A stretch of DNA of 64,000 nucleotides. Source: Flavobacteriales bacterium. GTDB taxonomy: Bacteria; Bacteroidota; Bacteroidia; Flavobacteriales_C; GCA-002722245. The position numbers and the translations under genes were made by a program. The DNA lies in the NCBI GenBank assembly GCA_049430665.1, contig JBMTCG010000004.1, positions 5,110-69,109 on the forward strand, given 5' to 3'. Shown here one piece after another: positions 785 to 64,000 of this stretch. The notes beneath the pieces are model-generated. The model worked only from the letters and a program-made list of their open reading frames with translations, ran no database searches and was not told the DNA's origin. Within the stretch, counting starts at the first letter, position 1; each line of letters starts with the position of its first letter.

Positions 785-785
785 A

Positions 786-37658: not shown

Positions 37659-37666
37659 TACATTTG
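37659..37666 (+). promoter_or_regulatory. -7 promoter box upstream of a terminated ~110-nt leader or sRNA
   Basis: tacatttg. Confidence 0.6.
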
Positions 37667-37669
37667 CGC

Positions 37670-37782: not shown

Positions 37783-37834
37783 GTTTTATCACCATTCGTT
37801 TTGCCTTTCGCCTTTTAACTTTTAACTTGCACGC

Positions 37835-40307: not shown

Positions 40308-40316
40308 CTTCATTGC

Positions 40317-41552: not shown

Positions 41553-41562
41553 ATTTTCTGAA

Positions 41563-41594
41563 TTAGGATATTTAGGATGATAAGATTTTAGGAT
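41563..41594. repeat. Short ttaggat repeats at a convergent gene junction
   Basis: ttaggat at 41563, 41572 and 41588. Confidence 0.55.
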
Positions 41595-42664: not shown

Positions 42665-42699
42665 AGATTAAAAGTAAAATAAAAAATAATGTGAATTAT

Positions 42700-42816
42700 G
42701 AAGAGCAGGACAATAGTACCTTCGTTACTCAGGACAACCGCTCTTAGAAAGTAGCGCTTACCCGGTTTGTCACCCGTCGGCTGACGGGCCCCGAAGGAAC
42801 TATTGTCCTAAACTTC
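42700..42816. other. GC-rich multi-stem structured element (candidate ncRNA or REP-derived element)
   Basis: 18-bp terminal inverted repeat with one mismatch (42707-42724 / 42792-42809) enclosing gacaaccg/cggtttgtc, cgct/agcg and cccgtc-ggct-gacggg stems. Confidence 0.6.
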
Positions 42817-43712: not shown

Positions 43713-43772
43713 AAGAATTAATTTTTAGGTTGATTCTAGAAAATGAAAAAGGTAACCCAGCTAAAAAAACGA

Positions 43773-45395
43773 CTAGGTTTGAATCACCCCAACACTAAAC
43801 TGTTTTGTGATTGGAGAATTGTTTGCCGCTAAAATTCCTTGTGAAATCCATTTACGCGTATCTAACGGATCGATTATCGCATCCACCCAAAGACGCGCTG
43901 CCGCATAATATGGTGATGTTTGCGCATCGTATCTCGCTTTTATTTTCAAGAAAACTTCGTCTTCTTTTTCTTTATTTACTTCTTCTCCTTTTGCTTTTAG
44001 TGTAGCGATTTGAATTTGTGCTAAAACCTTGGCTGCTTGCTCTCCTCCCATCACTGCAATTTGAGCTGTTGGCCAAGCTGCAATTAATCTTGGGTCGTAA
44101 GCTTTTCCGCACATCGCGTAATTTCCTGCGCCGTAAGAATTACCAATTACGATGGTGATTTTTGGAACAATAGAATTCGCCACAGCATTTACCAGTTTCG
44201 CACCATCTTTAATGATTCCGCCATGTTCAGAACGAGAACCTACCATAAAGCCTGTTACATCTTGTAAAAAAACCAAAGGGATTTTTTTCTGATTGCAATT
44301 TAAAATGAAGCGTGTTGCCTTATCTGCAGAGTCGGAATAAATAACGCCTCCAAATTGCATCTCCCCTTTTGCCGACTTAATTACACCGCGATTGTTTGCC
44401 ACGATTCCTACAGCCCACCCATCGATGCGCGCATAACCGCACACAATGGTTTTACCAAATCCTTCTTTGTATTCTTCGAATTTTGAACCGTCAACAATTC
44501 TTGCGATAATTTCTTTTACGTTATGAGGTTTGTTAGATGCAGATGAAAAAACTCCATAAATCTCTTCAGGTTTTTCGTTGGGCGCAACCGCTTTTTTTCT
44601 GTCGAAACCAGCATTTTGAGCACCACCAATTTTATCTACCAAACCACGAATTTTCTCTAAACAATCTTCATCGTTTTCACATTCGTAATCGGTAACGCCC
44701 GATATTTCGCAGTGCGTGTGAGAACCTCCTAAAGTTTCGTTATCGATATCTTCACCTATGGCAGCTTTCACCAAATAAGAACCTGCTAAAAAGATAGTTC
44801 CTGTTTTTTTTACGATTAACGCTTCATCACTCATGATAGGCAAGTAAGCACCACCAGCCACACAACTTCCCATTACTGCCGCAATTTGCGTGATGCCCAT
44901 CGACGACATGATGGCGTTGTTTCTAAATATTCTACCAAAGTGTTCTTTATCGGGAAAAATCTCATCTTGCATAGGAAGGTAAACTCCGGCACTATCCACC
45001 AAGTAGATGATAGGCAGACGATTTTCCATGGCTATCTCCTGAGCGCGCAAATTCTTTTTACCTGTGATCGGAAACCACGCTCCTGCCTTTACTGTAGCGT
45101 CGTTCGCAACAACCACACATTGCTTTCCGCTCACTTGTCCGATGACCACTACCACACCTCCAGCCGGACAACCCCCATGCTCTTCATACATGCCGTCGCC
45201 CACAAAAGCACCAATTTCTAAAGTTTGTGAATCTTTATCTAGCAAAAGATTTATGCGCTCTCTTGCACTCAATTTTCCTTTCTCGTGCAATTTCGCCACT
45301 GCTTTGGCAGAAGGCATAACAGCAAGAAGCTTCTTGTTCATTTCTGTAACAAGAAGCTTCATTTTTTCTTCGTTCTTATTATAATTTGCGTCCAT
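43773..45395 (-). CDS. Acyl-CoA carboxylase carboxyltransferase beta subunit (methylcrotonyl-CoA carboxylase type)
   Basis: GKLSARERI, ANDATVKAG, DSAGVYLPMQDEIFPDK.HFGRIF, GSCVAGGAY, LQDVTGFMVG, GAGNYAMCG. Confidence 0.93.
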   Translation of the reverse strand: MDANYNKNEEKMKLLVTEMNKKLLAVMPSAKAVAKLHEKGKLSARERINLLLDKDSQTLEIGAFVGDGMYEEHGGCPAGGVVVVIGQVSGKQCVVVANDATVKAGAWFPITGKKNLRAQEIAMENRLPIIYLVDSAGVYLPMQDEIFPDKEHFGRIFRNNAIMSSMGITQIAAVMGSCVAGGAYLPIMSDEALIVKKTGTIFLAGSYLVKAAIGEDIDNETLGGSHTHCEISGVTDYECENDEDCLEKIRGLVDKIGGAQNAGFDRKKAVAPNEKPEEIYGVFSSASNKPHNVKEIIARIVDGSKFEEYKEGFGKTIVCGYARIDGWAVGIVANNRGVIKSAKGEMQFGGVIYSDSADKATRFILNCNQKKIPLVFLQDVTGFMVGSRSEHGGIIKDGAKLVNAVANSIVPKITIVIGNSYGAGNYAMCGKAYDPRLIAAWPTAQIAVMGGEQAAKVLAQIQIATLKAKGEEVNKEKEDEVFLKIKARYDAQTSPYYAAARLWVDAIIDPLDTRKWISQGILAANNSPITKQFSVGVIQT

Positions 45396-45433
45396 TGTTG
45401 TAGAGGTTTGCGCCCTCTACGGCAAAAACAAGT

Positions 45434-47680: not shown

Positions 47681-47730
47681 AAAGATTGCATTTTAATAAC
47701 TTCTTGGTGCAAATATGCAAATATTTGTGG

Positions 47731-49128
47731 CTATTGTAAATAGGCCTTCATCAAATCGGAAGCTACGTTGAGTTTTATTTTCTTTACCGCCTTGATATAT
47801 GCATCCTCGGCAGCTTTTTGAAAAGACAATTGAGTACCCTTTATAGGCGTGAGATTATTTTGATAAATCAATTGGCCACTAGATTTATGTTTCAAACTTA
47901 CCTCTACGTTTAGCAACGATGCAAAAAACTGCATACCATTATCGCTATTACTTCCCGCATCTGAAGCCTCAGCATGAATCTCAACAACTAAATCAGCCTT
48001 ATCAGCCACATTTACTGGTATAAAGCCATTACTCACCAATGCTTCCCTAAAAGCCCCGTCCAACCATCTTTGAGAAAGTAGAGTACCATTATTCTTTTCT
48101 TCAGACTGAATCATAACAAAAACAGGTAAGGCTTCAATACTTATTTTCTCGCTCAAAGGCGTCACAAGCATAAAAAGCTTAGAGATAAGAGAACTAACCG
48201 CAGCCTCTCTTAAAATTTGCTTTACATCTATGCTCACCTGAATATATTGAGCCGAAGTTTGACGACTCACCTTTCCTACATTTACTGTATACATGCCGTT
48301 AGCATCACTTAAACCTTGCGCATAGGAATACAAATCTTTCTTAATTTCAATTTGCAGAGAAATAGCTGGCAATTTTTTTCCATCAATACTTTTAACAACA
48401 AAAGGCATGGAACCAACCGCTCCAATTTTAGCACGATAAACTTCCTCTTGAGCGTCAATTACAATTTCATTCAATACTGTTCTATAACCATTAAACAATT
48501 CGTTACCTAAGGATATCGTTCTGCCATCCAACTGCGTTTCTAGCGACTGATCTAAGTGCCTTTTGATCTTTTCCATTCCCGATACGTAAGATAGCAAACA
48601 ATCCTTGTATCTTCCTTGCGACTTGAAATCAATAGCCTTTTTTAAGTAATCTAAACCCTGATAAACAGCGGCATCAACTTCCTTTTGTTTAGCTTCTTGA
48701 TATTCGGACTTCGACAACTGATAATACACCCAAATACCTTCCACATTTTCGTAAGTAGCAACCTCCTCATAATTTTGCAATTGCTCATTCACACTTACAT
48801 TAATATCTTGCTTAAACTCCTCTCGGTACAAATTATTGGTTTCCAACTGCGACAAAACAGAATTAGTAGACACATTCACAGATATACCACTGGCCAAATC
48901 ATTTAAGGCATTTTTCTTTGCGATATCGCGAAAATCTACTGGAGATGTTTTTTTAGAAGCATAACCAATTCCTACGTAGTAAATTGAAGAAGAAGGTCTT
49001 TCATTCACCCATTGAGGCACCTCCATTTTATCTTGCTTTTTCGCTTCCTGCTTTTGAACTGCTTCTTTACTTCCTGAACACGATAAAAGAAAAACAAGCG
49101 CGGCAACTATATATAATACATTTCTCAT
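47731..49128 (-). CDS. LPP20 family lipoprotein
   Basis: Lipobox FLLSC; PQWVNERPSSSIYYVGIG...AKKNALNDLASGISVNV. Confidence 0.8.
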   Translation of the reverse strand: MRNVLYIVAALVFLLSCSGSKEAVQKQEAKKQDKMEVPQWVNERPSSSIYYVGIGYASKKTSPVDFRDIAKKNALNDLASGISVNVSTNSVLSQLETNNLYREEFKQDINVSVNEQLQNYEEVATYENVEGIWVYYQLSKSEYQEAKQKEVDAAVYQGLDYLKKAIDFKSQGRYKDCLLSYVSGMEKIKRHLDQSLETQLDGRTISLGNELFNGYRTVLNEIVIDAQEEVYRAKIGAVGSMPFVVKSIDGKKLPAISLQIEIKKDLYSYAQGLSDANGMYTVNVGKVSRQTSAQYIQVSIDVKQILREAAVSSLISKLFMLVTPLSEKISIEALPVFVMIQSEEKNNGTLLSQRWLDGAFREALVSNGFIPVNVADKADLVVEIHAEASDAGSNSDNGMQFFASLLNVEVSLKHKSSGQLIYQNNLTPIKGTQLSFQKAAEDAYIKAVKKIKLNVASDLMKAYLQ

Positions 49129-50519
49129 TTCTCTGGATTGTAAGAATAAATTTCTTGAGCTACAGACGAACTAATTTGATCGTATAATTTTTGTAATAAA
49201 CTTTCTTTACTTTCTAAAGCGGTAGAACTTTTCAATAAATTTTGAATCTGATTTTTTTGTTCGAAATTATTGTACACAACATCTTGAGGACTCGTTACAT
49301 TCATAGAATACCAGGTACCAGGATATAAATTTTCGCGATTCCCAGAATATTGCACATAATGAACAGAACTATTTTGTGTTAATGTTTTAATTCCGCTTAA
49401 CAGCACTTCTCCTGTTGTAGCAGAAACCATCTTATATTCAAAAGACATTGTTACTTGCCTACTACCCTGAAATTCTGAATAAGTCACTTTCTTATAATTC
49501 GTTTCAAAATAAGGTTGATTGGTTTGTGGGTTAATCCTCTGTACTCGATAAGATTCATATCCTTTAACTGTTTTTCCACTCACCGGAGTATCGAAATACT
49601 TAAGATCTAATACAGAACCCATCACTACTGCTTTTGCACCAATTAAATTACCTGCATTCACAGCTGTTGTTGCATCTACAGCCCCAGTCATAGATAATTT
49701 TTGTTCTTTCAACAATAAATCTAAATGCTGTCTGTCGATCACTTTTAAGAACGGACCTTTATTGCCTATCACTGTATTTATTATTCTAGACGACAATTGT
49801 TCGGCAGCCGCAATTTCAGATGTATAATTGTTAAACCTCATGAAAGCTACAGTATATTGAGCTTGCGTTAAAGCTTCACTCATTTGAGCTGCAGCATCTT
49901 TATAGCTAGCGTCTCGATTCACTATATTTTGAAAAGCATAAAATGCAGCTCGGTACTTCTCTCTCTTCATGGCATCTACACCTTTTCTATATATAGGCTC
50001 AATGCGCGCATATTTTTTTAATTGCTCTACATCTTTATAGTTAGGATCTAAAGAAGATATTTCATTAAATATACTTTCAGCTGCCGAAAAATTTTCTTTC
50101 TCTAAAAGTGCGTTCGCTTTGCGAAATCTTTCGTCTAAATAATTTGACTTTGCAATTTCATAGTCTTCTGTATAATGCCCTGCTATCGATATATTAACTT
50201 GTCCGCTTCGCACTTTCTCCACATATTTCTGCATATCTAAATACGTATATACCACCACTCCCCAGTCACCTCTATTATTAGCCACAAAAAAAGTATCTTC
50301 TTTAACATCCATCACTTTATCTGCACACATTTTCAATGCTGTTTTTGCTTCCACATAATCGGGACGCTTAGCTATTGCTCTTAAAAAATAATCGGTTGCT
50401 TCGTTATACATTCCAGCATTATATAGCTGATTTCCCTTCTTGGTTAGAGATTTCGGACTGTTGCAAGCAATAATTATTAACAATAAAAAGAGGGTAAAAT
50501 ATGGGTAAAGTTTTTTCAT
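49125..50519 (-). CDS. TPR + CsgG/HfaB-like lipoprotein
   Basis: Lipobox IIIAC; TPR helices; VAFMRFNN, KVIDRQHLDLLLKEQKLSMTGAVD...AG.LIGAKAVVMGSV. Confidence 0.8.
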   Translation of the reverse strand: MKKLYPYFTLFLLLIIIACNSPKSLTKKGNQLYNAGMYNEATDYFLRAIAKRPDYVEAKTALKMCADKVMDVKEDTFFVANNRGDWGVVVYTYLDMQKYVEKVRSGQVNISIAGHYTEDYEIAKSNYLDERFRKANALLEKENFSAAESIFNEISSLDPNYKDVEQLKKYARIEPIYRKGVDAMKREKYRAAFYAFQNIVNRDASYKDAAAQMSEALTQAQYTVAFMRFNNYTSEIAAAEQLSSRIINTVIGNKGPFLKVIDRQHLDLLLKEQKLSMTGAVDATTAVNAGNLIGAKAVVMGSVLDLKYFDTPVSGKTVKGYESYRVQRINPQTNQPYFETNYKKVTYSEFQGSRQVTMSFEYKMVSATTGEVLLSGIKTLTQNSSVHYVQYSGNRENLYPGTWYSMNVTSPQDVVYNNFEQKNQIQNLLKSSTALESKESLLQKLYDQISSSVAQEIYSYNPEK

Positions 50520-50564
50520 CGCGAAAGATTAAATCATAATTTCATTGCCGTGAATTAACAAATA

Positions 50565-51749
50565 TTGTTCCAATTGAGCAAGGGTATTAAGATAAAACTT
50601 TTTCAAAAATCACTAATCACCGCAGTTGGCTTGGTATTAATGGCTGGCGTCACGCACTCATGCAACGAAGAAGCGGTGATGGATCCCATCAAAAAGGAAA
50701 ACGAAGTAGTTGTTGAAATACCTACTCGCGAGTTCATACCAGTGGATTCGGAATTGGTAAGAAAAATTGAGACTTTTTTTGAAAATCATTACGACGAAAC
50801 TTTCTTTAGTGGCACTGTACTAGTGGCTAAAGACGACAACATTTACTACCAAGCATGCCACGGATTGGGGAACTACAAAAGCAAATCAGACAGTATTTGC
50901 CTTCGCTCCAACTTCCAATTGGCCTCTGCAACAAAGCCTTTTACATCGTACGCTATATTAAGACAAATATATTTAGGCAAGTTAAAATTAACCGATAGTG
51001 TGCACAACATCCTTCCCGATTTTAAATACAAAGGCATCACCGTTGAAATGCTATTATCGCATTTTTCGGGCTTACCTAATTATATGTATTTAACCGATGA
51101 ATATTGGGGTTGGGACAAAGGCAGCATCTCTAACAACGACGTTTTAAATCTATTCAACCAACATAATCCTAGCGGAGCAAGACCAAACTCTCACTTCTAC
51201 TATAACAACACCAACTACTTGGTTTTGGCTTTAATTATTGAACAGCTTACCGGAATGAGTTACGACAAGTACATGAAAGATTCCATTTTCACGCCACTTG
51301 GCATGAACAACACATGTATATTTAATAATGTAAATAGAGACCAATTAAAAGACGCTACATATGGCCATCTTGGCGACTTAAGACCAATTTATTTCGACTA
51401 TCTTGACGGCGTAATGGGTGACAAAGGTGTTTTCTCAAATATTTACGATTTACTAAAATTTGACCAAGCTCTTTACGATTGTAAATTAGTACCTTGTAAT
51501 TTATTGGAAGAGGCTTGGAAACCAAGAACAGATAGCTTAGAAACTGCAGGTGGCGCTTACGGATTAGGATGGAGACTGAGAAATAGTAAAGACGTTGGCA
51601 AAGTTATTTTTCACAGTGGCTGGTGGAAAGGCTACCGCAGCTTATTCATTAGAGTACCACAAGTTCATGGAACCATTATCATTCTCACCAACACTGTTCG
51701 CGGAAGGTTCTTTAGAGTTGATGACCTCGTAAATTTATTTGCCAAATAA
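50565..51749 (+). CDS. Serine hydrolase (beta-lactamase class C/AmpC-like fold), catalytic motifs intact
   Basis: QLASATKPF (SxxK), LLSHFSGL, YYNNTNY (YxN), HSGWWKGY; start codon uncertain. Confidence 0.88.
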   Translation: MFQLSKGIKIKLFQKSLITAVGLVLMAGVTHSCNEEAVMDPIKKENEVVVEIPTREFIPVDSELVRKIETFFENHYDETFFSGTVLVAKDDNIYYQACHGLGNYKSKSDSICLRSNFQLASATKPFTSYAILRQIYLGKLKLTDSVHNILPDFKYKGITVEMLLSHFSGLPNYMYLTDEYWGWDKGSISNNDVLNLFNQHNPSGARPNSHFYYNNTNYLVLALIIEQLTGMSYDKYMKDSIFTPLGMNNTCIFNNVNRDQLKDATYGHLGDLRPIYFDYLDGVMGDKGVFSNIYDLLKFDQALYDCKLVPCNLLEEAWKPRTDSLETAGGAYGLGWRLRNSKDVGKVIFHSGWWKGYRSLFIRVPQVHGTIIILTNTVRGRFFRVDDLVNLFAK

Positions 51750-51798
51750 TTCGCTATTCTACTGTTTTTCAATAAATTTAGGGCTTAGGCTTTAAATT

Positions 51799-53217
51799 AT
51801 GTTAGAACAAGAAAACACTCCGTCAAGACAAAATCTTATTGCTCAATTGCAAGAATTGGTGAAAACCGAACAGCAAATTGGCAAAGCAATTCAGCAAAAG
51901 AAGACAATCATGGAGGCTTGGGCCAAGCTTGGCGATGATGGCTCTTCGCAAAACAAACAGCTCAGTCATCATTTTTTTAAATTGGTGGAAGATTTCAATT
52001 ACAACATTAATATTTATAAAGCCATTCAAGACCACGACTTAAAACGCAATCAGCAACTTAAGGAAGAACTCTTAAAAAAGCTAGAAGATCTTAGCACCAA
52101 AAACGATCGTATTGGCGACACCTTTAAAGAATTACAAAAACAATGGTTCGATGTTGGTCCGGTTAAAAAAGAACTACGCGATGATTTTTGGCAAAAATTT
52201 AAAGACCTCTCTCAAATCATCATATACAAACTAGCCCAATTAAAAGTGCAATCGAAAGCCAAAGAAGAAGAAAATGCTTTGGCCAAAGAACAAATCATCC
52301 TCTTCCTAGAAAACATCATTAGCGAGCCCATTACCAAAGAAAAACAATGGCGTACTAAAACAGATATTGTAATTGCTAAACAAGCCGAATGGAAGGAAAT
52401 AGGACACGTGCCTAAAGAAAAATCGAATTCACTTTGGAATAGATACCGAGCTGCATGCGACAACTTCTTTAAAGAAAAAGCTGTTTTTTACGACAGCTTG
52501 AAAGCAGGCTTTCAGCAGCACAAAAAAGAAAAACTAGAATTGTGTGACGCAGCGCAAAACTGCATCAACGATGAATCAAAAAGCAACGATGACAAAGCTT
52601 TTACATTAACGAAGTTGCAAAGAAAATGGAGAGAATTGGGACAAGCGCATCCTCGTGATGAACAAAAATTATGGATCAAATTTCACGACATATGCAACTC
52701 CTTTTTCAACACTGTAAAACAACAAAAAGAAGAAGAAAAAGCAAATAATTTAGCTGCCTTAGACAACAAAAAAGAAATGCTCAATAACATAGATAAATTA
52801 ACTACAAAAGAAGATATAGTAGCTCAACTTAAACAATGGTATTTAAGCGACATCATCAAAACACCTCACGAGCTTAACAATAAATTCTTTGAGAAAATAA
52901 ATACTGCGCTAGTCAATCAGCAATTGAACAAAAACGAAATTGAAGAACTAAAATTCAACACTAAACTGGAAGCCTACCACGAATTAAAAATTGATGATTT
53001 ATTTGGTGATGAAATAAGCCAAATTCGTGAAAAAATAAAATCATTAGAAGAAGACAAGATAAAATTTGAAAACAACCTAGGTTTCTTCAAACATGCGAAA
53101 AACGACAATCCTATGATTGTTGAATTGCGCGAAAAAGTAACACAAATGACTGCCGACATCGATGTGTATAAGAAGAAATTACAAATGATTAAAAAAGCGA
53201 TGAAATACCAAGCTTAA
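51799..53217 (+). CDS. DUF349 domain-containing protein
   Basis: Repeats LQKQWFDVGPV...FW.KF, W.EIGHVP...LWNRY..ACDNFF, W.ELGQAHP; NNLGFF. Confidence 0.88.
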   Translation: MLEQENTPSRQNLIAQLQELVKTEQQIGKAIQQKKTIMEAWAKLGDDGSSQNKQLSHHFFKLVEDFNYNINIYKAIQDHDLKRNQQLKEELLKKLEDLSTKNDRIGDTFKELQKQWFDVGPVKKELRDDFWQKFKDLSQIIIYKLAQLKVQSKAKEEENALAKEQIILFLENIISEPITKEKQWRTKTDIVIAKQAEWKEIGHVPKEKSNSLWNRYRAACDNFFKEKAVFYDSLKAGFQQHKKEKLELCDAAQNCINDESKSNDDKAFTLTKLQRKWRELGQAHPRDEQKLWIKFHDICNSFFNTVKQQKEEEKANNLAALDNKKEMLNNIDKLTTKEDIVAQLKQWYLSDIIKTPHELNNKFFEKINTALVNQQLNKNEIEELKFNTKLEAYHELKIDDLFGDEISQIREKIKSLEEDKIKFENNLGFFKHAKNDNPMIVELREKVTQMTADIDVYKKKLQMIKKAMKYQA

Positions 53218-53245
53218 AAATTTACAACTTCACTATATTCGCCTA

Positions 53246-55573
53246 ATGAAAAAAACATTACTTTCTCTGTTCATCATTCTTAGCTTTAGTGCAAAAGCGC
53301 AAGATTTTTTAGGTTATTTAAACAGTAATTACGCAGGTGTAAACGGTATTGATCTACAACCTGCTTCCATTGTAGACAACCGATATAAACTAGATATTCT
53401 TTTGTTTGCCAACAACACCTGTTTCCAAAACAACTTCTTTTATTTAAGAGAAGGATTTATGCAGGCCCCACTCGATAAAAATTTTAGAAAAGATTATTTA
53501 GACTATGATAAAGAAATAACGGGAACCACTCTTATAGTTTCCAATCAATTACAGGGTCCCTCCTTCATGCTTACTTTGAACGAAAAGAATTCCATTGCAT
53601 TTAATTCTAAAGCACGAGTAATTGTAAACATGGACAATGTATCAACCGAATTTTTAAGACAACTACATCACAATTATGATGTGCCAGAGTTATGGGGGAA
53701 ATCATTTTTACAAAACAATTTCAACTTGCAAGGAATGGCATGGGGAGAATTTGGCCTAACGTACGGAAGAGAAGTTTATAAAACAAAACACCACTATTTT
53801 AAATCGGCACTTAGACTAAAGATGCTTCAGGGTTATGGTGCTTTCCACCTGCACTCACCAGCATCTACCATTAAAATAGAAAGCGACTCATCTCTCACAA
53901 TAAGCAATAGCGAAATACTGTCCTATGGTCATTCGGCAAATTTTGATGATGGCACAGTGTATTTTAATCCGTTCGACCCCAATGCGACTATTGGTTGGGG
54001 TGGAGATTTTGGTGTTGTTTACGAATGGAGACCTCGCTCAGAAAAACACACTTACGAGATGGACGGTGAAAAGAAATCAGCTCGTGATGAAAATAAGTAC
54101 AAACTAAAAGTTGGAGTTTCCTTGCTCGATGTTGGAGGCATAAAATTCAAACGTGGTAGCCACAATAAAGACTTTATCCCTAACATATCTCATTGGAAAG
54201 TTAAAGATATCGATCCCACCAATATTCAAGCTTTCGACAGCACAGTAAATGCGAATTTCCCCCCTCTCCCTTCATCTCCAACTTATAACGTAAGTTTACC
54301 TACTGCCTTATCTGTACAGGTAGATTACAACATTTGGAAAAACTTCTATATCAACGCTACTGCCTTTCAGGCAATAAAATTCAATTCTAAAGCCACCAAA
54401 ATTCACGAAATAAGTAATTACTCTATTACGCCTCGTTGGGATTACAAATGGTTTGGGGTTTATGTTCCAATAAGTTTTAACGAAATGGGTACCTTTAGAG
54501 TGGGTGCCAGCGCGATGTTCGGCCCCTTCTTCTTTGGCACAAGTAATTTAGGTCCGCTTTACCAAAGCGAAATGAAAGGTGTAGATTTCTTTGTAGGCAT
54601 TAAAGTTTCTTCACTGCATAGCAAAGAATCTGATAAGGATGATGACAAGGTTTCCAACAAAAATGATGAATGTAAAGACCAAGCGGGTATTTGGAAGTTT
54701 AGAGGTTGTCCGGATACCGATGGAGACAGCATTCCTGATAAAGACGATGCTTGTCCGAAAATACCTGGCCTAAAAGAATTCAAAGGCTGTCCTGATACCG
54801 ATAAAGATGGCATAGAAGACATGAAAGACGACTGTGTAGATGTGCCAGGTTTAAAAGAATTCAACGGTTGTCCAGATACCGATGGAGATAAAATCATCGA
54901 TAAAAATGACTCATGTGCTTCTGTGAAAGGATTGGCAATTTACAATGGTTGTCCAGATACAGATGGAGACTCTATCATCGATTCAAAAGATGCTTGTCCG
55001 ACTTTGGCTGGACCGAAAAAATACAATGGTTGTCCAGATACCGATGGCGACAGTATTCTCGACAATGTTGATGATTGCATTACTGTAAAAGGATTAAGAG
55101 AAAATAGAGGTTGCCCAGAAAGCGATGAAGATGGCGACGGCGTCATTGATAAAGTAGACGAGTGTCCTAAAACCTTCGGCCCAGCAGAAAACAAAGGCTG
55201 TCCGATATTACAAAAAGAAGAAGTTGAAATTTTAAAACTTGCTTTCTCTAACCTCGAATTTGAAACAGGAAAAGCCATTATTAAAAACGAATCTTTTGCT
55301 TCACTCGATTCTTTAGCTGCTTTGATGGTTAAAAAATCTACATGGAAATTGAAGTTAGCTGGACACACCGACAATGTTGGCGACAAAGCTAAAAACATGA
55401 AATTATCGAAAGATAGAACAGAAGCAGTGGCAAAATATTTAGCTAGCAAAGGAGTAAATTCTAGCAATCTTATTGTAGAATATTACGGTCCAAACAAACC
55501 TATTGCCAGCAATAAAACGCCAGAAGGCCGTCAAAGAAATCGTAGAGTAGAAATGAATATTATTTTCGAATAA
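53246..55573 (+). CDS. DUF5723-like beta-barrel + TSP3 repeats + OmpA peptidoglycan-binding domain
   Basis: NYAGVNGIDLQPASI, W.EFGLTYG, DFGVVYEW, LPTALSVQVDY; GCPDTDGD repeats; FETGKA, GHTDNVG, NRRVE. Confidence 0.88.
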   Translation: MKKTLLSLFIILSFSAKAQDFLGYLNSNYAGVNGIDLQPASIVDNRYKLDILLFANNTCFQNNFFYLREGFMQAPLDKNFRKDYLDYDKEITGTTLIVSNQLQGPSFMLTLNEKNSIAFNSKARVIVNMDNVSTEFLRQLHHNYDVPELWGKSFLQNNFNLQGMAWGEFGLTYGREVYKTKHHYFKSALRLKMLQGYGAFHLHSPASTIKIESDSSLTISNSEILSYGHSANFDDGTVYFNPFDPNATIGWGGDFGVVYEWRPRSEKHTYEMDGEKKSARDENKYKLKVGVSLLDVGGIKFKRGSHNKDFIPNISHWKVKDIDPTNIQAFDSTVNANFPPLPSSPTYNVSLPTALSVQVDYNIWKNFYINATAFQAIKFNSKATKIHEISNYSITPRWDYKWFGVYVPISFNEMGTFRVGASAMFGPFFFGTSNLGPLYQSEMKGVDFFVGIKVSSLHSKESDKDDDKVSNKNDECKDQAGIWKFRGCPDTDGDSIPDKDDACPKIPGLKEFKGCPDTDKDGIEDMKDDCVDVPGLKEFNGCPDTDGDKIIDKNDSCASVKGLAIYNGCPDTDGDSIIDSKDACPTLAGPKKYNGCPDTDGDSILDNVDDCITVKGLRENRGCPESDEDGDGVIDKVDECPKTFGPAENKGCPILQKEEVEILKLAFSNLEFETGKAIIKNESFASLDSLAALMVKKSTWKLKLAGHTDNVGDKAKNMKLSKDRTEAVAKYLASKGVNSSNLIVEYYGPNKPIASNKTPEGRQRNRRVEMNIIFE
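54626..55204 (+). repeat. ~7 thrombospondin type-3 Ca-binding repeats (27 aa / 81 bp period)
   Basis: GCPDTDGDSIPDKDDACPKIPGLKEFK and copies. Confidence 0.9.
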
Positions 55574-56541
55574 TGAAGAAAATAATATTCTTATTTCTCC
55601 TTATAGAAATTGGTGTTCATGCTCAAAAAATAGATTCTACTATATTTTTAAATACACCAAGTTTTAGCGGACAATTGGCCATTTTAAAAAACGACTCTTT
55701 GGTTTTTGTTGCTTCGCAAGGATGGATGAACTACCCCTTACGACTCAAGATGAATAATGATGCGCTCATTGAAATTGGCGAGTTGAGCTCTCAATTTACG
55801 CGTGAAGCATTTTATAAATTAATCAATGACAATTTAATCCATCAAGATTCTACCGTAGAAAAATATATAGCAGGATTCCCTTACCCTAACATCAAAATTA
55901 AACATGTAATTGAAAACACATCGGGTTTATCTTCCAACTACATAAAGCTTTTTCACCGAAATATTTTCAACGACCAAAACATTAAAGTTAAAGACAAGCT
56001 AATCATCACCAACAAAAGCATCATTGATATTTTGGTGAAATTTAAACCTGCTTTAGAATTTATTCCGGGCGAAAAAATTTCGATGTGCAACACCAACGAT
56101 ATTGTATTGGCCTATTTACTTGAAGTTTTTTATTTCAAAAGCTACGATGAAATCATAAACGAAATGATAAAAAAGAAATATCCAAAACTCAATATTGTTG
56201 CTTGTAGCGATTGGAGAAATACGCCTTTGATGAATAGGGCATTGGGACAAATGAAAAACGACAGCACACACTACTCAGTTCAAGAATCGCTGCACGACAT
56301 GGGTTTTAAATACGACGACGCCTCGTTGGGGCATCACCATATATATGCAGATGCAAAAAGTTTGGTGAAATATTTTGGAATGTGTGAAGCAGAAAAAAAG
56401 ATAGAAGAATTTGAATTAACTGGTCACGAACCCGGATTCAATAGCTTTGCAAGATATTTAAATGGACTTACCGTGGTTGTTTTATCAAACACCAGCGACG
56501 AAAACGATGTTAAGTTAATTGTCAACTCACTCGCTCATTGA
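55573..56541 (+). CDS. Beta-lactamase-fold protein with degenerate catalytic motifs
   Basis: IGELSSQFT in place of SxxK, IENTSGL, PGEKISMCNTN in place of YxN, LTGHEPGF. Confidence 0.75.
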   Translation: MKKIIFLFLLIEIGVHAQKIDSTIFLNTPSFSGQLAILKNDSLVFVASQGWMNYPLRLKMNNDALIEIGELSSQFTREAFYKLINDNLIHQDSTVEKYIAGFPYPNIKIKHVIENTSGLSSNYIKLFHRNIFNDQNIKVKDKLIITNKSIIDILVKFKPALEFIPGEKISMCNTNDIVLAYLLEVFYFKSYDEIINEMIKKKYPKLNIVACSDWRNTPLMNRALGQMKNDSTHYSVQESLHDMGFKYDDASLGHHHIYADAKSLVKYFGMCEAEKKIEEFELTGHEPGFNSFARYLNGLTVVVLSNTSDENDVKLIVNSLAH

Positions 56542-56548
56542 AACAAAC

Positions 56549-58321
56549 CTATTTGCTTTGAATTAATTTTTCGCGATACTTCACTAACAAGCTTGATTTA
56601 GAAACAAAGCCAACATATTTTCCTTCGTCAACAACAGGAAGGTTCCAAGCATTTGTTTCATCAAATTTTTTCATAATCGACTGAATAGATTCGTCGGAAG
56701 AAATGATAGCTGGAGGATTATGCATAAGTTGCTTTACCGAAATACTTTCATACAACTCTTGTTTGAACATAATTTCACGAATATCATCTAAAACAATTAT
56801 ACCTACTAACAATTCATCTTCAACCACAGGAAAAATATTCCTTTTAGAATGAGCAACTACCTCTATTAACTCTCCTAAAGTTGTATCAGGAGAAATGGCT
56901 TGAAAATTTTGTTCAATAACCGCCATTGTTCTGAGGGAAGCCAAAATATTTTTGTCTTTATCCTCAATAAAAACATGACCTTCCTTTGCTAAATTTTTTA
57001 CATCTAGAGAATGTGGTTCAAAATAGCGAGCTATCATAAAACTAAATGCAGAAACAATCATTAATGGAATCATTAATTCATAGCCTCCCGTTAATTCTGC
57101 GATAAGAAATATAGCGGTTAAAGGTGCATGAAAAACACCACTTAAAATACCCGCCATAGCCACTAAAGTAAAGTTGCTTACCGGAATATTTTCAAAGCCA
57201 AACAAACTTAAAACAACAGCAAAGCCAAATCCTAAAAAAGCGCCCACAAAAAGTGATGGAGCAAAATTACCACCATTGCCTCCAGCCCCCATGGTTAATG
57301 CAGCTGCTATTGGTTTAAAAAGCATTGTAAAAAAAATAACCAATACCATCGCCCATTTATTGGTAATTAAATCGGCAAAAATACTTTGTGCAAATAAGTT
57401 TTGGGTATCTAAATATGAAAATGTTTTGATACTCTCATAACCTTCGCCAAAGAGTGGCGGAAAAATTAAAATCAACAAAGACAAAGTGATTCCGCCCACC
57501 AACGCCTTAGTATAAACGCTCCATGTCTTATGTTGTAAAGTACCTTCCACCTTTAAAAAGACACGTAAATAATACACCGACATTATGCCCGCCAAAACAC
57601 CTAAAATGATATAAAAAGGAACATTATGATAATCAAAAGTTTCTGTTAATTTAAACGACAACAAAATTTCTTCCTTTAAAATTATTTTTGATAACAAAGC
57701 CCCCGTTGCAGCAGAAATAATAAGTGGAATAAAAGCCGAAATTGATACATCGGCCAACAGTACCTCTAATGCAAATAAAACTCCAGCAATAGGCGCATTA
57801 AAAGCAGCACCAATACCTGCCGCTGCACCACAAGCCAATAAAAGCGTACGATCTTTATAATTAATACGATATGTTCTTGAATAATTAGAACCAATGGCAG
57901 AACCAGTTGTTACAATTGGAGATTCTAAGCCTACAGAACCACCAAAACCAACCGTTATCGCACTTGTTAGTGCATTAGAATACATTAAATGTTTGGGCAG
58001 AAAACTTCCTTTTTTAACAATGGAAAAAAGCACGCTTTCTGTACCTTTTTGTAATTTACCTTTAAAATATTTTTGGATAATTAGACTAGTGAACAATATA
58101 CCAACAGTAGGAAAAACGAGATACAAAAATTGTTGAAAATCTAAATGAAAGTCTTTGGTAAGCGCTATGCGAATATAATGCACAAAAGTCTTCAGCAATA
58201 TCGCCATTAAGCCAGCTGTTAGTCCTACCAATATGCTAGAAAATATTAGAAACTGTTTTGGCGTTAACTTTTTATGCAACCAATGAATATATACTTCTAT
58301 TTTGTTTGCCTTTGATGTCAT
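56549..58321 (-). CDS. ClC chloride channel/antiporter with two CBS domains
   Basis: GGSVGLESP, GAAAGIGAAFNAPIAG, GGNGGNFAPSLF, C-terminal CBS pair. Confidence 0.93.
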   Translation of the reverse strand: MTSKANKIEVYIHWLHKKLTPKQFLIFSSILVGLTAGLMAILLKTFVHYIRIALTKDFHLDFQQFLYLVFPTVGILFTSLIIQKYFKGKLQKGTESVLFSIVKKGSFLPKHLMYSNALTSAITVGFGGSVGLESPIVTTGSAIGSNYSRTYRINYKDRTLLLACGAAAGIGAAFNAPIAGVLFALEVLLADVSISAFIPLIISAATGALLSKIILKEEILLSFKLTETFDYHNVPFYIILGVLAGIMSVYYLRVFLKVEGTLQHKTWSVYTKALVGGITLSLLILIFPPLFGEGYESIKTFSYLDTQNLFAQSIFADLITNKWAMVLVIFFTMLFKPIAAALTMGAGGNGGNFAPSLFVGAFLGFGFAVVLSLFGFENIPVSNFTLVAMAGILSGVFHAPLTAIFLIAELTGGYELMIPLMIVSAFSFMIARYFEPHSLDVKNLAKEGHVFIEDKDKNILASLRTMAVIEQNFQAISPDTTLGELIEVVAHSKRNIFPVVEDELLVGIIVLDDIREIMFKQELYESISVKQLMHNPPAIISSDESIQSIMKKFDETNAWNLPVVDEGKYVGFVSKSSLLVKYREKLIQSK

Positions 58322-58322
58322 T

Positions 58323-59519
58323 TTATAAAATCTCTGTATCGTAATTCAACTTTGTTTTGGTAAACAGTAATGCCATCATCATGGTGACTGTAGACAATAT
58401 TATAACAAAAAGTAAAATTCCTTCATTAAATAAATCACTTTTCCACTGTTGAGGAATACTATAAAATAAAACAATAGTAATCAACCCTCTGGGGGCAATA
58501 AATAATTCGGGAAAAACATTGATTCGAGAAATAAAGCGAAGAAAAACATAACGGGTTACAAGAATAGTTAGCATGACCACAAAACCTAAAACGAACACAT
58601 TTTTATCTTTCAACAAAGATAAATTAATGGTATAACCAAAAATTAAAAAGAAAAAAGTACGCACAATAAATGCTGTTTCTGCGGTAATAATTTTGAGCTC
58701 ACGAGTTACTAATTTTAATTTCTCGGGATGAAGGTAATCAGCTAGCTTACCCTTAATAAACAGATTGGCATTGTTCAACATTACACCAAAAACAAGTATC
58801 AAGAGCAAAGAAGGTAGGTGAAAAATTTTACTTACAGAATACACTAAAATCAGAGAAGCAAAAATTAAATAAAACTTTGCGTGAGAACGACTATAGTTAA
58901 GCAATAACAACAGAAGAAAAGTGCTTAACAACGACACTACAACAATCAGAAAAAAGGAGACCCCCAATTCTAAAAAAGAAGAAAAACTGCCTATTTCAGA
59001 ACCAATCACATAATTAAAAAGCATGATGCCTAAAATATCTGAAAAAGAAGTTTCATAAATAATAAATTCTCTCTTTTCTGGCGACAATTTACTTACGCTT
59101 GGTATTGCAATAGCACTGCTTATAATACCCAATGGAACAGCGTAAACAATAGCTGTTCGTAGAGGCATGGCTAATGAATAATAAAAAATAGCGCCAATAA
59201 CCGCAGAAGTGACAATCAAAATGAATAATGCCGACAAAAATGATTTTCCTATCAATGGAATTTTTTTTCTACTTAATTTTAAATCAAGAGCCCCTTCCAA
59301 AACAATAAAAATTAAACCCACTACCCCCAGCAATTCTAATAAAAAAGGGGTATTAGGTATATTTACATCAAATTCATTTCCTAAAAATTGTATACCAACA
59401 CCCGCACTAATAAGCATTATAACAGAAGGCACTCTTAATTTTTCGCTAACAACATTAAAGATGTAAGACAATACAACTAAAATGCAAATACTTATTAAAA
59501 TGTAGTAAATGTTGGGCAC
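58323..59519 (-). CDS. Cation:proton antiporter (CPA1/NhaP-like)
   Basis: VGLIFIVLEGALDL, ISSAIAIPS, YETSFSDILGI, APRGLIT; GTG start inferred (ORF track start 59594). Confidence 0.85.
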   Translation of the reverse strand: MPNIYYILISICILVVLSYIFNVVSEKLRVPSVIMLISAGVGIQFLGNEFDVNIPNTPFLLELLGVVGLIFIVLEGALDLKLSRKKIPLIGKSFLSALFILIVTSAVIGAIFYYSLAMPLRTAIVYAVPLGIISSAIAIPSVSKLSPEKREFIIYETSFSDILGIMLFNYVIGSEIGSFSSFLELGVSFFLIVVVSLLSTFLLLLLLNYSRSHAKFYLIFASLILVYSVSKIFHLPSLLLILVFGVMLNNANLFIKGKLADYLHPEKLKLVTRELKIITAETAFIVRTFFFLIFGYTINLSLLKDKNVFVLGFVVMLTILVTRYVFLRFISRINVFPELFIAPRGLITIVLFYSIPQQWKSDLFNEGILLFVIILSTVTMMMALLFTKTKLNYDTEIL

Positions 59520-59590
59520 AGGGATAATTTGCAATAAACTTAAGTATATCGTTTTACATAACAAAAGCATATTGAATTTTATGAAATATT

Positions 59591-61825
59591 TCAAACAAGC
59601 TCCTCATACATCAATAACTTTAATAATAACTCAATCACATTTTTCTGTTGTTTTAGATTGTATTTAGCATCACTTTGCATTAATCCTACTTTGATTGAAT
59701 ACTGATTAGCTGGTATTACTTTAAACATGTCTTCATCTGTTTTATCGTCTCCAACAGCCATTATAAAATCATATGAATTATTGTTCAACCATAGATTTGC
59801 AGCCATACCTTTATCAATTCCTCTTGCTCTAACTTCTATCACTTTATTCCCTTCAATAATCTGAAAATCTAAATGAGTAGAGAGCTCCATGAGGGAATTA
59901 ATTAATTCTCTCGATCTCAAAAAGCCGAGTTCTGCTTCTGCATTTCGATAATGCCATGCTAGAGAAAGTGTTTTTTCTTCTGTAAAAGTTCCCGCACATC
60001 TCTCAGTATATAAATTAAAAATTGACTGAACGGCTTCCTTCCACTCCACTTTTACAGGTATAGTTTGCTTCCACGATTCACCAAAATGCTTAATAAATGC
60101 ACCATGCTCGGCTACCAAACTTATAGGAATATTAGCAAACCATTTTTCAAGCACCTCCATTCCTCTTCCACTGATAACAACGACCTCATTTCGAATATCC
60201 GACGACAGCATCAATAGAAGATTCAGAATATCTTCGTTAGGTGCTGCCAAATGTGGTAATTTTGCTAAAGGAGAAAGAGTGCCATCGTAATCTAACAGAA
60301 ACAGCCTTTTCCGTGAAACACAATATTTTTGTTGTAAATCAATTTCTATTAAAGGCGTAATTTCCTTTACATTAAGTTTCTTTTGCATATTTTTTTGTTG
60401 AATTAGTTGAGTAATGAAATCTTCGGCCCACTTCATAACATCGTAACTTTTAATTCGGTTTTGCATCACTTCATTACGAGCTACTTGTTCGTTAACAGGC
60501 ATGGTTAAAGCCAAATGAATACTATCGGCAATTTCTTTTCTATCAGTGGGATTCACTAAAATAGCCTCTCCCAATTCCGATGCAGCACCTGCTGTTTCAC
60601 TCAATATCAATACACCTTTCTTATCGGTACGACTGGCAATAAACTCCTTGGAAACTAAATTCATTCCATCTCTTACTGGGGTTATTAACGCTACATCAGC
60701 CGATAGATACAAAGCAACCAGGTTTTTAAAATCGAGAGATTTGTACTGATACACAATGGGAGTCCAATCTACACTACCGTATTTTCCATTTATACTGCTT
60801 ACCAAGCCTTCAATTTCTTTCTTTGTTTCCGAATATTTAGTAATAATATCTCGTGAAGGAACAACTAGGAGAATGAACACTACCTTTCTTTGATACTGGG
60901 GGAAGCGATTCAAAAACAACTCAAAACTTTCTAACTTATTAAGCAAACCTTTGGCATAATCTAACCTATCAACAGAAATAATCACATGTAGATCATACAG
61001 TTTCTTTTTAATTTTATTTCGTTCATTAAAAGTATTCGAATCAAGAGAACACGCATTAAATTTATTGTAATCAATACTAATTGGAAAAGTATCTACCGTT
61101 ACACTTCTTTCTGGCGTAATGATGAGCCGCAAGGAATGGTCGTAATCTAAAATTTGTCGGGTTGATTTTAAAAAATGCTGCACATAATCGTTGGTATGCA
61201 AACCAATCAAATCGGCACCCAAAATACCCTTCAAAACGCTTTTTCTCCATACACTAGGCAACAATCGAAAAAGCTCGTACGAGGGAAAAGGAATATGCAG
61301 AAAAAAACCAATTGTAGCATTGGGTAAATATTTCCGAAGCAATGCAGGCAAAAGCATTAAATGATAATCATGAATCCAAATAATATCATGAGGACGATAT
61401 AACTGTAAAATTTTTTTACAAAAAAGATGATTTGCTTCTTCAAAAGCCGTAAAACATTCATCGGAAAATTTTGCATAAGAAGGAAAATAATGAAACAAGG
61501 GCCAGATAGTATCATTACAAAAACCATTATAAAATTTATTTTGAGTATCGGTAGGAATAAATACTGGAGCAATCTCAAACTCTTTATGAATGATACTTCC
61601 CGACGGAAACTTCTCGTTAAATTTCATTTCTGAAATATCTGAAGTACCTATCCACAAGGGACGTTCTACTTCCGCGGAAAATTTAGCATGATTGGTTTTT
61701 TGAACATATGAAATAGTACTAGACACTAAACCACCCGAACTTTGTGAAAAAACCAATTCGCCTTTCTTTTCTGTTATTCTAAAAGGCAATCGGTTAGATA
61801 CAATTAACAGCCTACTTTTTTTCAT
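59591..61825 (-). CDS. otsAB: Bifunctional trehalose-6-phosphate synthase/phosphatase (GT20 + HAD)
   Basis: VSNRLP, GGLVS, WPLFHY, WIHDYHLMLLP, FFLHIPFPS, VDRLDY.KG, DGMNLVSKEF, LDYDGTL, GDDKTDEDMF. Confidence 0.95.
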   Translation of the reverse strand: MKKSRLLIVSNRLPFRITEKKGELVFSQSSGGLVSSTISYVQKTNHAKFSAEVERPLWIGTSDISEMKFNEKFPSGSIIHKEFEIAPVFIPTDTQNKFYNGFCNDTIWPLFHYFPSYAKFSDECFTAFEEANHLFCKKILQLYRPHDIIWIHDYHLMLLPALLRKYLPNATIGFFLHIPFPSYELFRLLPSVWRKSVLKGILGADLIGLHTNDYVQHFLKSTRQILDYDHSLRLIITPERSVTVDTFPISIDYNKFNACSLDSNTFNERNKIKKKLYDLHVIISVDRLDYAKGLLNKLESFELFLNRFPQYQRKVVFILLVVPSRDIITKYSETKKEIEGLVSSINGKYGSVDWTPIVYQYKSLDFKNLVALYLSADVALITPVRDGMNLVSKEFIASRTDKKGVLILSETAGAASELGEAILVNPTDRKEIADSIHLALTMPVNEQVARNEVMQNRIKSYDVMKWAEDFITQLIQQKNMQKKLNVKEITPLIEIDLQQKYCVSRKRLFLLDYDGTLSPLAKLPHLAAPNEDILNLLLMLSSDIRNEVVVISGRGMEVLEKWFANIPISLVAEHGAFIKHFGESWKQTIPVKVEWKEAVQSIFNLYTERCAGTFTEEKTLSLAWHYRNAEAELGFLRSRELINSLMELSTHLDFQIIEGNKVIEVRARGIDKGMAANLWLNNNSYDFIMAVGDDKTDEDMFKVIPANQYSIKVGLMQSDAKYNLKQQKNVIELLLKLLMYEELV

Positions 61826-61826
61826 A

Positions 61827-63041
61827 TTATACATTTTCAAATTCATTAATTAGTCTAACAAAAACCGCGTTTGTCCACGCGAAACCACTTTGAGTGGGGT
61901 ATCTATCGGGATTAAACTCACCAACACCTCTCTTAACAACATTGTGTTTTTCCCAAAACTTCCCTGTTTCTATAAATAATTCATGATTCATATCTAACCA
62001 TTTCTTGGCAATTCTTTCTGCATCATTTTTATATCCATAATTCAACAAACCTTTAACCACTATCCATTGCTGATGAGGCCATCCATTAGGACAATCGTGT
62101 TGTTTGGTGTATTCAGAAAGGTTATACGCCTGCGTATTTAGCACCCCTCCCTTACTTTCTAAAAGAGGTAAAATGTATTTTACAATTCGTTCAGCCTGTT
62201 TTTCGCTTGCCATTTTGGCCCATAAAGGATAGAATCCTGCCACAGAAATAAAACTACTTTGCTCACCCAAAAATTTATTGTAATCAAAAAAGAAGTTTTT
62301 TTCCTCATTCCACATTAACTCCATTATCATATTTTTTCTCTTAAGTGCCTGCTCTTTATAATACTTATGCTTATCGTAATTTTTTAAAAGGCGGAACACT
62401 TCACTCAAGTCTGTCTCATATTTATAAAGACAGGTATTTAAATCAATGGGTAAATAATCTAAACATCTATCATTAAATCGAGAGGTCATGTCCCACCCCG
62501 ATTCATGTTCGGCACCAAGGTGAGTAATAAAATGATCACAGTAGCGCGAAAGACCTTTATAAACAATGTGTTTCTCTGTTAGACCCTCACTCATCCAATA
62601 ATTTTTCAACTCCATTTCAGCTATGTTCACTGCCTTTTTTAGCCACAACAAATCTTTTGTATGTTCATAAATTTCTAAAGCCATGGATGTTAAAAAAGGA
62701 ATTTGAGAAGTACCAAGATTGTAGTACCTATTTCTCATCGGCATAATTCCAAAACGTTTGAACAAGTAAATAAAATTATCTACCATACCTTGAGCAAGTG
62801 ATACTTTATTTGATTTCACCAAACCCAAAATGGTAAAATAGCTATCCCAATAAAATTGATCTTTTTTAAAAATATCATCATTAGGCGATACATATTTATG
62901 AGGTAGCCCCAAATGTATCTGCCTATCAGAAGTATGAGAATAAGTTATTTTTGTCCAAAATCGCTCAATATAATCCAAGCTTAGTTTATAATTTTCTTTT
63001 TGTATCATATCATGTTTTTTGAAAATATTTAAATTCATCAT
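61827..63041 (-). CDS. Compact GH37 trehalase-like glycoside hydrolase, no signal peptide
   Basis: YWDSYF, ESGWD, PIDLN, PNGW, GFAWTNAV; alternative start at 63008. Confidence 0.85.
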   Translation of the reverse strand: MMNLNIFKKHDMIQKENYKLSLDYIERFWTKITYSHTSDRQIHLGLPHKYVSPNDDIFKKDQFYWDSYFTILGLVKSNKVSLAQGMVDNFIYLFKRFGIMPMRNRYYNLGTSQIPFLTSMALEIYEHTKDLLWLKKAVNIAEMELKNYWMSEGLTEKHIVYKGLSRYCDHFITHLGAEHESGWDMTSRFNDRCLDYLPIDLNTCLYKYETDLSEVFRLLKNYDKHKYYKEQALKRKNMIMELMWNEEKNFFFDYNKFLGEQSSFISVAGFYPLWAKMASEKQAERIVKYILPLLESKGGVLNTQAYNLSEYTKQHDCPNGWPHQQWIVVKGLLNYGYKNDAERIAKKWLDMNHELFIETGKFWEKHNVVKRGVGEFNPDRYPTQSGFAWTNAVFVRLINEFENV

Positions 63042-63043
63042 TT

Positions 63044-63110
63044 AAAAAAGCCGTAGTTTCTACTGAGGGAATAGGCAACTGAAGGTTAGGAAAGAAACTA
63101 CGGCCGGGGT
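63044..63110 (-). promoter_or_regulatory. Attenuator-like leader hairpin upstream of the trehalose operon
   Basis: gccgtagtttct-N31-agaaactacggc-tttttt on the minus strand. Confidence 0.6.
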
Positions 63111-63260
63111 TCAATCAGAATATTTTTTTGACATGAGTATTCATCCAATAGTAAACCAAAAGAGTTTGGCTCTGATTTACTAAACAATAGAATATTACAT
63201 GACATAACCGAGAAGAAATTCCTCAAAATTTCCCTCAATTAATAAATAGGAAGTATCGAC

Positions 63261-63602: not shown

Positions 63603-63662
63603 TTAGTCTCTGTTGCTCCTTAAAGTAAAAAAAAATATTTGTAAAACCAAACTTTTTAACAT

Positions 63663-64000
63663 TTAACAAAACTTCGCTAAAAACTCATCTTTCTTAGCCG
63701 GCGACACATCCACCTCAGCCCCATCACTCATCGTTACAAATCCGCCTTTGCCTTTGGTATATTTTGTTACATATTGAATATTCACCAAATGCGATTTATG
63801 CACACGAACAAAATCAAACTCAGTTAAACAATCTTCATAGAATTTAAGTGTACGACAAATCATTAATTTCTTGCCCGATGTAAGATAAAAATTAGTGAAA
63901 TTATCTGCTGCTTCACAACGCACAACATCGGCAACATTAATCACTTCAAAACCTTCTAAAATGGGTAGTATTATTTTCTTCGTTTGCTTACTGATGCTCT
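63663..64000 (-). CDS. LytTR-family response regulator (partial, runs off the right edge)
   Basis: KIILPILEGFEVINVADVVRCEAADNFT, RTLK.YE, FVRVHKSHLVN. Confidence 0.92.
   Translation of the reverse strand, partial: SISKQTKKIILPILEGFEVINVADVVRCEAADNFTNFYLTSGKKLMICRTLKFYEDCLTEFDFVRVHKSHLVNIQYVTKYTKGKGGFVTMSDGAEVDVSPAKKDEFLAKFC

Follow-up and report, generated by a model that had tools for sequence, protein, structure and literature searches.

A terminator-like hairpin with a large, conserved pyrimidine-rich loop ahead of a trehalose and ion-transport gene cluster in Flavobacteriales: a candidate attenuator

In Bacillus subtilis, the hutP-terminator-hutHUIGM arrangement places a terminator between a regulator gene and the structural genes, and this intercistronic terminator contains two repeats of a binding site (PMC2425495). 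Antitermination by the CAT/PRD proteins (BglG, LicT, SacY) and the ANTAR proteins (AmiR, NasR, EutV) has been reviewed (PMC12591593). Cold-shock proteins, which bind T/U-rich single strands, have likewise been linked to antitermination (PMC1636342, PMC9765468), and cspD affects a terminator (PMC9765468). Here we analyze a terminator-like hairpin ahead of a trehalose and ion-transport gene cluster in a stretch of 64,000 nucleotides from a Flavobacteriales bacterium, referred to as the window. RNA-level control of gene expression is poorly charted in the phylum Bacteroidota, whose members, to our knowledge, lack Hfq, ProQ, CsrA and Shine-Dalgarno-driven initiation, and we know of no cis-regulatory RNA for trehalose or osmoadaptation operons. 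In Staphylococcus aureus, RNAIII and the Rsa sRNAs expose C-rich motifs in hairpin loops, including the loops of terminator hairpins.

The hairpin is encoded on the minus strand, as is every gene between 56.5 and 64 kb of the window (Table 1). The first-pass annotation had reported a perfect 12-bp stem followed by U6 on the coding strand, and both are present: the 12-nt arm GCCGUAGUUUCU (63104..63093) is perfectly complementary to AGAAACUACGGC (63061..63050) on the minus strand, and RNAfold adds the pair G63105-U63049, which extends the stem to 13 bp (12 Watson-Crick pairs and one G-U pair; 6 G-C). The 31-nt loop is predicted to be unpaired, and the folding energy amounts to -18.6 kcal/mol (z = -5.1 relative to dinucleotide shuffles). 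Hairpins with at least 12 Watson-Crick pairs and loops of 3-45 nt occur 5 times in the window as compared to a mean of 0.25 in 20 window shuffles; when a T-tail is required, 6 hairpins are observed versus 0.05 in the shuffles. Hairpins of this type are ~20-fold rarer in shuffled sequence, and the window hairpin is real, beyond chance. With a stem containing G-C pairs and an immediate U-run on the transcribed strand it has the anatomy of an intrinsic terminator, but the short loop of such terminators, typically 3-10 nt, is replaced by loops of 27-31 nt in the window and its relatives. The five other terminator-like hairpins of the window have loops of only 3-9 nt, so that loops of such a size are not a general trait of this genome, and the earlier description of the loop as far larger than that of an ordinary terminator was correct.

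Table 1. Features of the hairpin and of its genetic surroundings (window coordinates unless a related locus is named).
Feature	Position	Strand	Remarks
Small ORF, 113 aa	63261..63602	-	N-terminal transmembrane helix, KKxL.V.KY, C-terminal ..C[CS]LLI
Small ORF in relatives	L081 3491-3823; L082 2362-2712; L090 95-433		
Spacer, small-ORF stop to hairpin	63106..63260	-	155 nt, poorly conserved; no conserved ORF, promoter motif or antiterminator
5' arm of hairpin	63105..63093	-	GGCCGUAGUUUCU; from RNAfold; aligns with the arms in L090, L082 and L081
Loop	63092..63062	-	31 nt, pyrimidine-rich, C11 U12 A5 G3; two C/U tracts around the core A-N-UUGC
UUGC	63075..63078	-	Invariant in 4/4 loops (alignment and covariance model consensus)
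3' arm of hairpin	63061..63049	-	AGAAACUACGGCU; 5/13 pairs with double changes among the four sequences
U6 tract	63049..63044	-	Directly 3' of the stem
Spacer, U-tract to probable GH37 start	63009..63043	-	35 nt, A/U-rich, without promoter motif
GH37 trehalase-family glycosidase	61827..63008	-	First gene past the hairpin, 393 aa from ATG 63008
OtsA-OtsB fusion (GT20 trehalose-6-P synthase + trehalose phosphatase)	59591..61846	-	20-nt overlap with the GH37 stop
Putative cation/H+ exchanger	58323..59594	-	No Pfam match itself; the syntenic L081 gene is PF00999
ClC chloride channel with CBS domains	56549..58321	-	Last gene of the cluster

The tightly packed cluster past the hairpin consists of GH37, OtsA-OtsB, exchanger and ClC-CBS genes and thus bears out the trehalose and ion-transport functions that had been proposed for it. 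The hairpin had also been placed right before the GH37 gene, which is off by 33 nt. The longest possible GH37 ORF starts at ATG 63041, two bases past the U-run, but the called gene (P0001, 393 aa) and essentially all of its homologues open at MI(K/Q/N)K, and the true start is therefore most likely ATG 63008 as judged from these sequences. In the related locus L082, two GH37 genes are found in tandem (2933-3973 and 4001-5182); the first copy, directly past the hairpin, encodes 346 aa, has diverged around a conserved ESGWDMTSRF block and may be degenerate. GH37 homologues with 50-63% identity (L004-L049) are labelled as DPANN archaea, CPR/Patescibacteria and other unrelated phyla, and one match of 69% is labelled Akkermansia, which indicates either a wide horizontal spread of the trehalase-family gene or mis-binned contigs.

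Four distinct hairpin sequences were compared, i.e., those of the window, L090 (a locus found via the small ORF), L082 and L081; L091 is identical to L081 in the hairpin region. All four share the same order of a small ORF of 110-118 aa, a spacer of 150-180 nt, the hairpin, a U-run and GH37, with 36-40 nt between the stem and the ATG in the three loci where this distance is measurable. The stem is followed by three or more U in each of the four sequences, the tracts of the relatives reading UUUUCU, UUUUAU and, in L090, the poor UUUAAUUCU. All four sequences fold (-18.6 to -22.9 kcal/mol, z between -4.3 and -5.2), 94% of the stem cells in the four-sequence alignment are paired, and RNAalifold finds the hairpin to be the sole strong conserved helix of the whole intergenic region, its one additional helix being a weak one of 5 bp. 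Homologues with compensatory stem changes, which the first-pass annotation had named as a check, were thus found in four lineages: double changes affect five of the 13 stem pairs, one position occurs as G-C, A-U and U-A, and the stem of L081 is almost wholly rewritten with pairing kept. The covariation score is 0.69, compared to 0.40 for column shuffles (1 of 500 reached 0.69) and 0.17-0.32 for slid registers; since the four sequences are closely related and part of the signal is shared ancestry, these statistics are weak, suggestive rather than conclusive. G-U pairs occur at several positions, where the opposite strand would have C-A mismatches, and the U-run is likewise present on one strand only, which suggests that the element is a sense-strand RNA structure rather than a DNA palindrome.

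When the four sequences were made into a covariance model, its members scored 66-81 bits and the next best sequence 17 bits, and a search with this model, covering the window and ~730 kb of related loci, detected no further copies. The GH37 proteins that are 75-81% identical to that of the window form a small clade with it. GH37 relatives of at most 70% identity (80 genome loci; L084-L089) have other upstream genes, no small ORF and no hairpin by the covariance model. Within the clade, L083 (GH37 77% identical) carries only a decayed hairpin (positions 10-104; GCAU.GCU.UCU / AGA.AGC.AUGC) with 10 pairs in 12 positions and a C/U-rich loop of 54 nt, no better than shuffles (z = -0.3) and followed by a separate A/U hairpin; the element is hence dispensable. 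Scans of metagenomes with the small-ORF profile and with the hairpin DNA pattern gave no match, and the number of RNA runs holding the locus sequence was 0. Near-identical DNA is present in marine, estuary and freshwater metagenome runs, and among named GH37 relatives the closest come from metagenome-assembled genomes of Bacteroidota. Altogether, the element is confined to four or five uncultured lineages, all from aquatic metagenomes, and has no cultured host.

The loop had originally been described as a direct repeat. Such a repeat, CCUAACCUUCAGU (63090..63078) / UG (63077..76) / CCUAUUCCCUCAGU (63075..62), is present but weak, with 11 of 14 aligned positions equal, one gap and no exact seed of at least 6 nt, which is why the program's repeat listing did not contain it. 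The exact tandem repeat is not conserved, and the relatives keep it merely as two pyrimidine tracts flanking the invariant UUGC. All four loops (31, 27, 30 and 28 nt; C+U 74-82%; one to four G) have the order 5' pyrimidine tract, core A-N-UUGC, 3' pyrimidine tract, in which A63080 is a further invariant column of the four-sequence alignment and the covariance model consensus. A CCC run is present in each of the four loops, and UCCC in the window and L090 only. The pairwise identity among the four sequences is 61-79% in the loop versus 38-60% in the upstream spacer; relative to L081, the stem arms are only 38-50% identical, the loop being better kept than the stem in that comparison. The loop sequence is therefore constrained beyond structural need. 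The former proposal of two loop sites for a dimeric protein or a ligand would have to refer to what is conserved, two C/U tracts and a central A-N-UUGC; a ligand riboswitch is unlikely.

A co-conserved small ORF upstream of the hairpin had been overlooked in the first reading, which took the element for a 5' leader. The hairpin does precede the GH37 operon, but in view of this ORF it is placed as an intercistronic terminator instead. The small ORF is found upstream of the hairpin in every readable locus, and its product belongs to a family of 110-131 aa with the C-terminus LP(I/V)(Q/R)xC(C/S)LLI that comprises 8 clusters among 1.84 billion representative proteins; P0131-P0135 are more distant relatives. 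The protein has no Pfam or NCBIfam match and no recognizable RNA-binding domain, and in its AlphaFold model (pLDDT 54) the transmembrane helix alone is confident.

Further upstream, a LytTR gene (63663-64000, minus strand) runs past the window end. On the longer contig of this organism (L092, 5002-7279), a TPR and His_kinase (PF06580) gene and a gene for a 128-aa stand-alone LytTR protein lacking a receiver domain immediately precede the small ORF, and L090 likewise ends in a LytTR gene there. Two similar octamers, AAGTTTTG (63674..63667) and AAGTTTGG (63654..63647), precede the small ORF at a distance of 20 nt from each other and might form a LytTR-type site. A 10-bp hairpin with a 34-nt loop (AAGGAGCAAC / GUUGCUUCUU; 63568-63621, minus strand), followed by a U-rich run, encloses an SD-like AAGGAG together with the start codon of the small ORF; none of L081, L082 and L090 shares it. 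In the spacer, L081 (3889-3900) and L082 (2774-2787) share a block TTTTCAATGG(T/C)TA followed by ATTAAG(A)GGG, ~60-40 nt upstream of the hairpin, which is absent from the window and L090; in these two loci, the G-rich tract there can pair locally with a C/U tract immediately ahead of the hairpin to give a small helix.

The element matches no named riboswitch or leader family, and the first-pass annotation could not assign it to one either: Rfam 15 gave no match at the gathering score in the window and none on the homologous hairpins of L081, L082 and L090, and at E ≤ 10 no hit on the window hairpin was convincing (best overlap MOSES4, 15.8 bits versus a gathering score of 54.8). Because the loop of the one strong helix is unstructured and alternative pairings are missing, a ligand-sensing riboswitch is unlikely. 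Duplexes of upstream sequence with a stem arm, as an antiterminator would need, are weak (-5.7 to -10.5 kcal/mol) and inconsistent in position between the loci. A leader peptide was rejected as well: a 46-aa ORF of the window ends at UAG 63100..63098 inside the 5' arm and has no conserved start, and the leader-region ORFs of L081, L082 and L090 agree neither in frame nor in the points at which they begin and stop. Matches between the loop and upstream GAGGG tracts or a fixed site in the operon are scattered and not conserved. A HutP-type element was dismissed, since the loops contain no conserved series of NAG triplets and neither Pfam nor NCBIfam matches the small ORF, only the gene order being alike; an ANTAR leader was dismissed too, as only one hairpin, with a loop of 27-31 nt, is present and the neighborhoods viewed contain no ANTAR gene. 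A sigma-54 or LytTR reading of the loop DNA was dropped after inspection by eye.

No promoter of the TTTG...TAnnTTTG type, the canonical Bacteroidota motif and the one scanned for, was detected between hairpin and ATG, and none that is clear in the spacer upstream. With neither room nor motif for a separate promoter between hairpin and GH37, this part of the first-pass annotation stands. A sigma-70-like match at 63033..63004 was discarded because the start codon overlaps with its -10 hexamer. The spacer could still hide a promoter of the ECF type or of another type, or such a promoter could overlap the hairpin.

Based on these comparisons of sequence and predicted structure, we favor, with a probability of roughly 0.45, a terminator-type attenuator that is regulated by a trans-acting binder of the loop. 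Transcription would start upstream, probably ahead of the small ORF, because the spacer contains no canonical promoter motif. As the anatomy suggests, the polymerase would then meet the hairpin and its U-run before the GH37 start, and part of the transcripts would end at this point. The trehalose and ion-transport genes would be expressed by read-through, since the 35-41 nt before the GH37 start offer neither room nor a motif for a promoter, so that the operon would have to be read through the hairpin. The C/U-rich loop, which is made before the 3' arm, would be the landing site for a single-strand RNA binder acting in trans, either a protein or a G-rich RNA. This binder would delay or prevent closure of the stem and so bring about antitermination, or it would instead stabilize the stem. 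Three findings lead us to propose this step, namely the conservation of the loop, the lack of any competing RNA helix and a loop size far beyond that of the genome's ordinary terminators; as a conserved leader ORF, an antiterminator pairing and a consistent cis target are all missing, any regulation would have to come from a trans factor. Several observations count against an attenuator. A loop of 31 nt should weaken an intrinsic terminator, the U-tract of L090 is poor, and the element is dispensable in L083.

Candidate binders are cold-shock-domain proteins, RRM-type proteins or the small-ORF product, the last by comparison with the order hutP-terminator-hutH. Since the synthesis of trehalose is a cold- and osmotic-stress function, cold-shock-domain proteins would fit, but the invariant UUGC argues for a partner more specific than these. 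For the small-ORF product, the predicted transmembrane helix and the lack of a recognizable RNA-binding domain appear to count against a role as binder. That this small membrane-anchored protein is itself the loop-binding antiterminator, in an autoregulatory module like those of HutP or BglG, is an analogy that we consider highly improbable. If true, a membrane-tethered RNA binder would couple the state of the membrane or osmotic conditions to read-through into trehalose and ion-transport genes, a type of antiterminator that has not been described in any phylum.

The hairpin might instead be an ordinary, constitutively leaky terminator at which the small-ORF transcript stops and which keeps small ORF and operon at a fixed ratio, its loop being functionless and conserved by recent ancestry. 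We regard this as unlikely, while giving it serious weight: the anatomy is that of a terminator located 150-180 nt past the small-ORF stop, there is neither an alternative structure nor an identified ligand or protein, the related sequences are only four, and decay in L083 was not accompanied by loss of the operon. It is difficult to reconcile, however, with a loop that is kept better than the spacer and, in comparison to L081, better than a stem that was replaced in a compensatory manner, and with loops of 27-31 nt containing an invariant UUGC in all four lineages where the genome otherwise uses 3-9 nt. Conservation of an unpaired loop would also be expected if the hairpin formed the 3' end of an sRNA, either from the small-ORF 3' UTR or from an independent transcript, with the C-rich loop (CCC in four of four, UCCC in two) as the seed for G-rich mRNA sites and the terminator setting a defined 3' end. 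This we judge improbable, because an independent transcript would lack a promoter motif, the spacer upstream is poorly conserved, no conserved cis target and no second copy or partner is present in the window, and Bacteroidota mRNAs are largely without Shine-Dalgarno sites.

A non-terminating element for mRNA stability, processing or translation, be it a protective stem-loop or a pyrimidine-rich standby or S1 platform ~40 nt before the SD-less GH37 start, would agree with the distance of 36-40 nt to the start codon that is constant in three loci, with the pyrimidine-rich single-stranded stretch and with an initiation in Bacteroidota that is independent of SD pairing. We find it quite improbable, as such an element does not need the U-run that is kept in four of four sequences, and as enhancers are usually A/U-rich and not C-rich. 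Extremely unlikely is a function at the DNA level, i.e., as an operator palindrome, a direct-repeat site of the LytTR type or a short segment that inverts. An inverted repeat does enclose direct repeats, a LytTR regulator gene is located upstream in the window and in L090, and low-coverage contigs from two runs break within the hairpin. But the G-U pairs and the U-run give the symmetry a strand, the repeat has a period of ~15 nt versus roughly 21 nt for LytTR sites, and its conservation does not extend to L081 and L082, where a LytTR neighbor is missing. Moreover, the orientation of the loop is equal in four lineages, and a 31-bp spacer is too short for known invertases. The two broken contigs (X2 and X5, low-coverage Logan contigs from other metagenomes) end inside the hairpin at window positions 63055-63074. 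These breaks probably reflect coverage and not a rearranged locus, since the source-run contig spans the hairpin cleanly, with no joint. A DNA palindrome or invertible element was thus rejected on the strand-specific G-U pairs and the intact source contig.

The attenuator with a loop binder, if true, would represent a compact form of factor-dependent attenuation that has no competing RNA fold and in which the large loop, not the stem, holds the conserved sequence. Its value is limited by the tiny distribution and by the fact that there is no cultured host, but the loop could act as bait for a Bacteroidota RNA-binding regulator.

The RNAIII and Rsa sRNAs of Firmicutes differ from the present hairpin in acting in trans, by pairing with Shine-Dalgarno sequences. 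Cold-shock proteins bind pyrimidine- or T-rich single strands and melt or prevent terminator hairpins, as would be required here, but their binding is thought to be largely sequence-unspecific, whereas the UUGC of the loop is invariant. In the CAT/PRD and ANTAR systems, as proposed for this locus, a protein on the nascent RNA at or next to a terminator decides on read-through; here, in contrast, neither a RAT-like antiterminator hairpin over the 5' arm nor a pair of hexaloop hairpins is present, and no CAT or ANTAR protein is encoded in the neighborhood viewed. The resemblance to the hut operon lies in a small first gene, an intercistronic terminator and structural genes, and in two repeated single-stranded motifs with a linker. 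The differences are C/U tracts and UUGC in a loop instead of XAG triplets flanking a G-C stem, a small protein with a transmembrane helix and no homology to HutP, and another phylum. Like the intrinsic-terminator attenuators, the element combines a stable stem with an immediate U-run on the coding strand and precedes genes without their own promoter. Unlike in these, where loops of 3-10 nt are free to vary, the loop here is 27-31 nt long and conserved in sequence, and there is no competing antiterminator helix and no leader peptide. The element would therefore be of a known kind, the terminator-type attenuator, but of no described family, with the loop instead of an alternative helix carrying the information.
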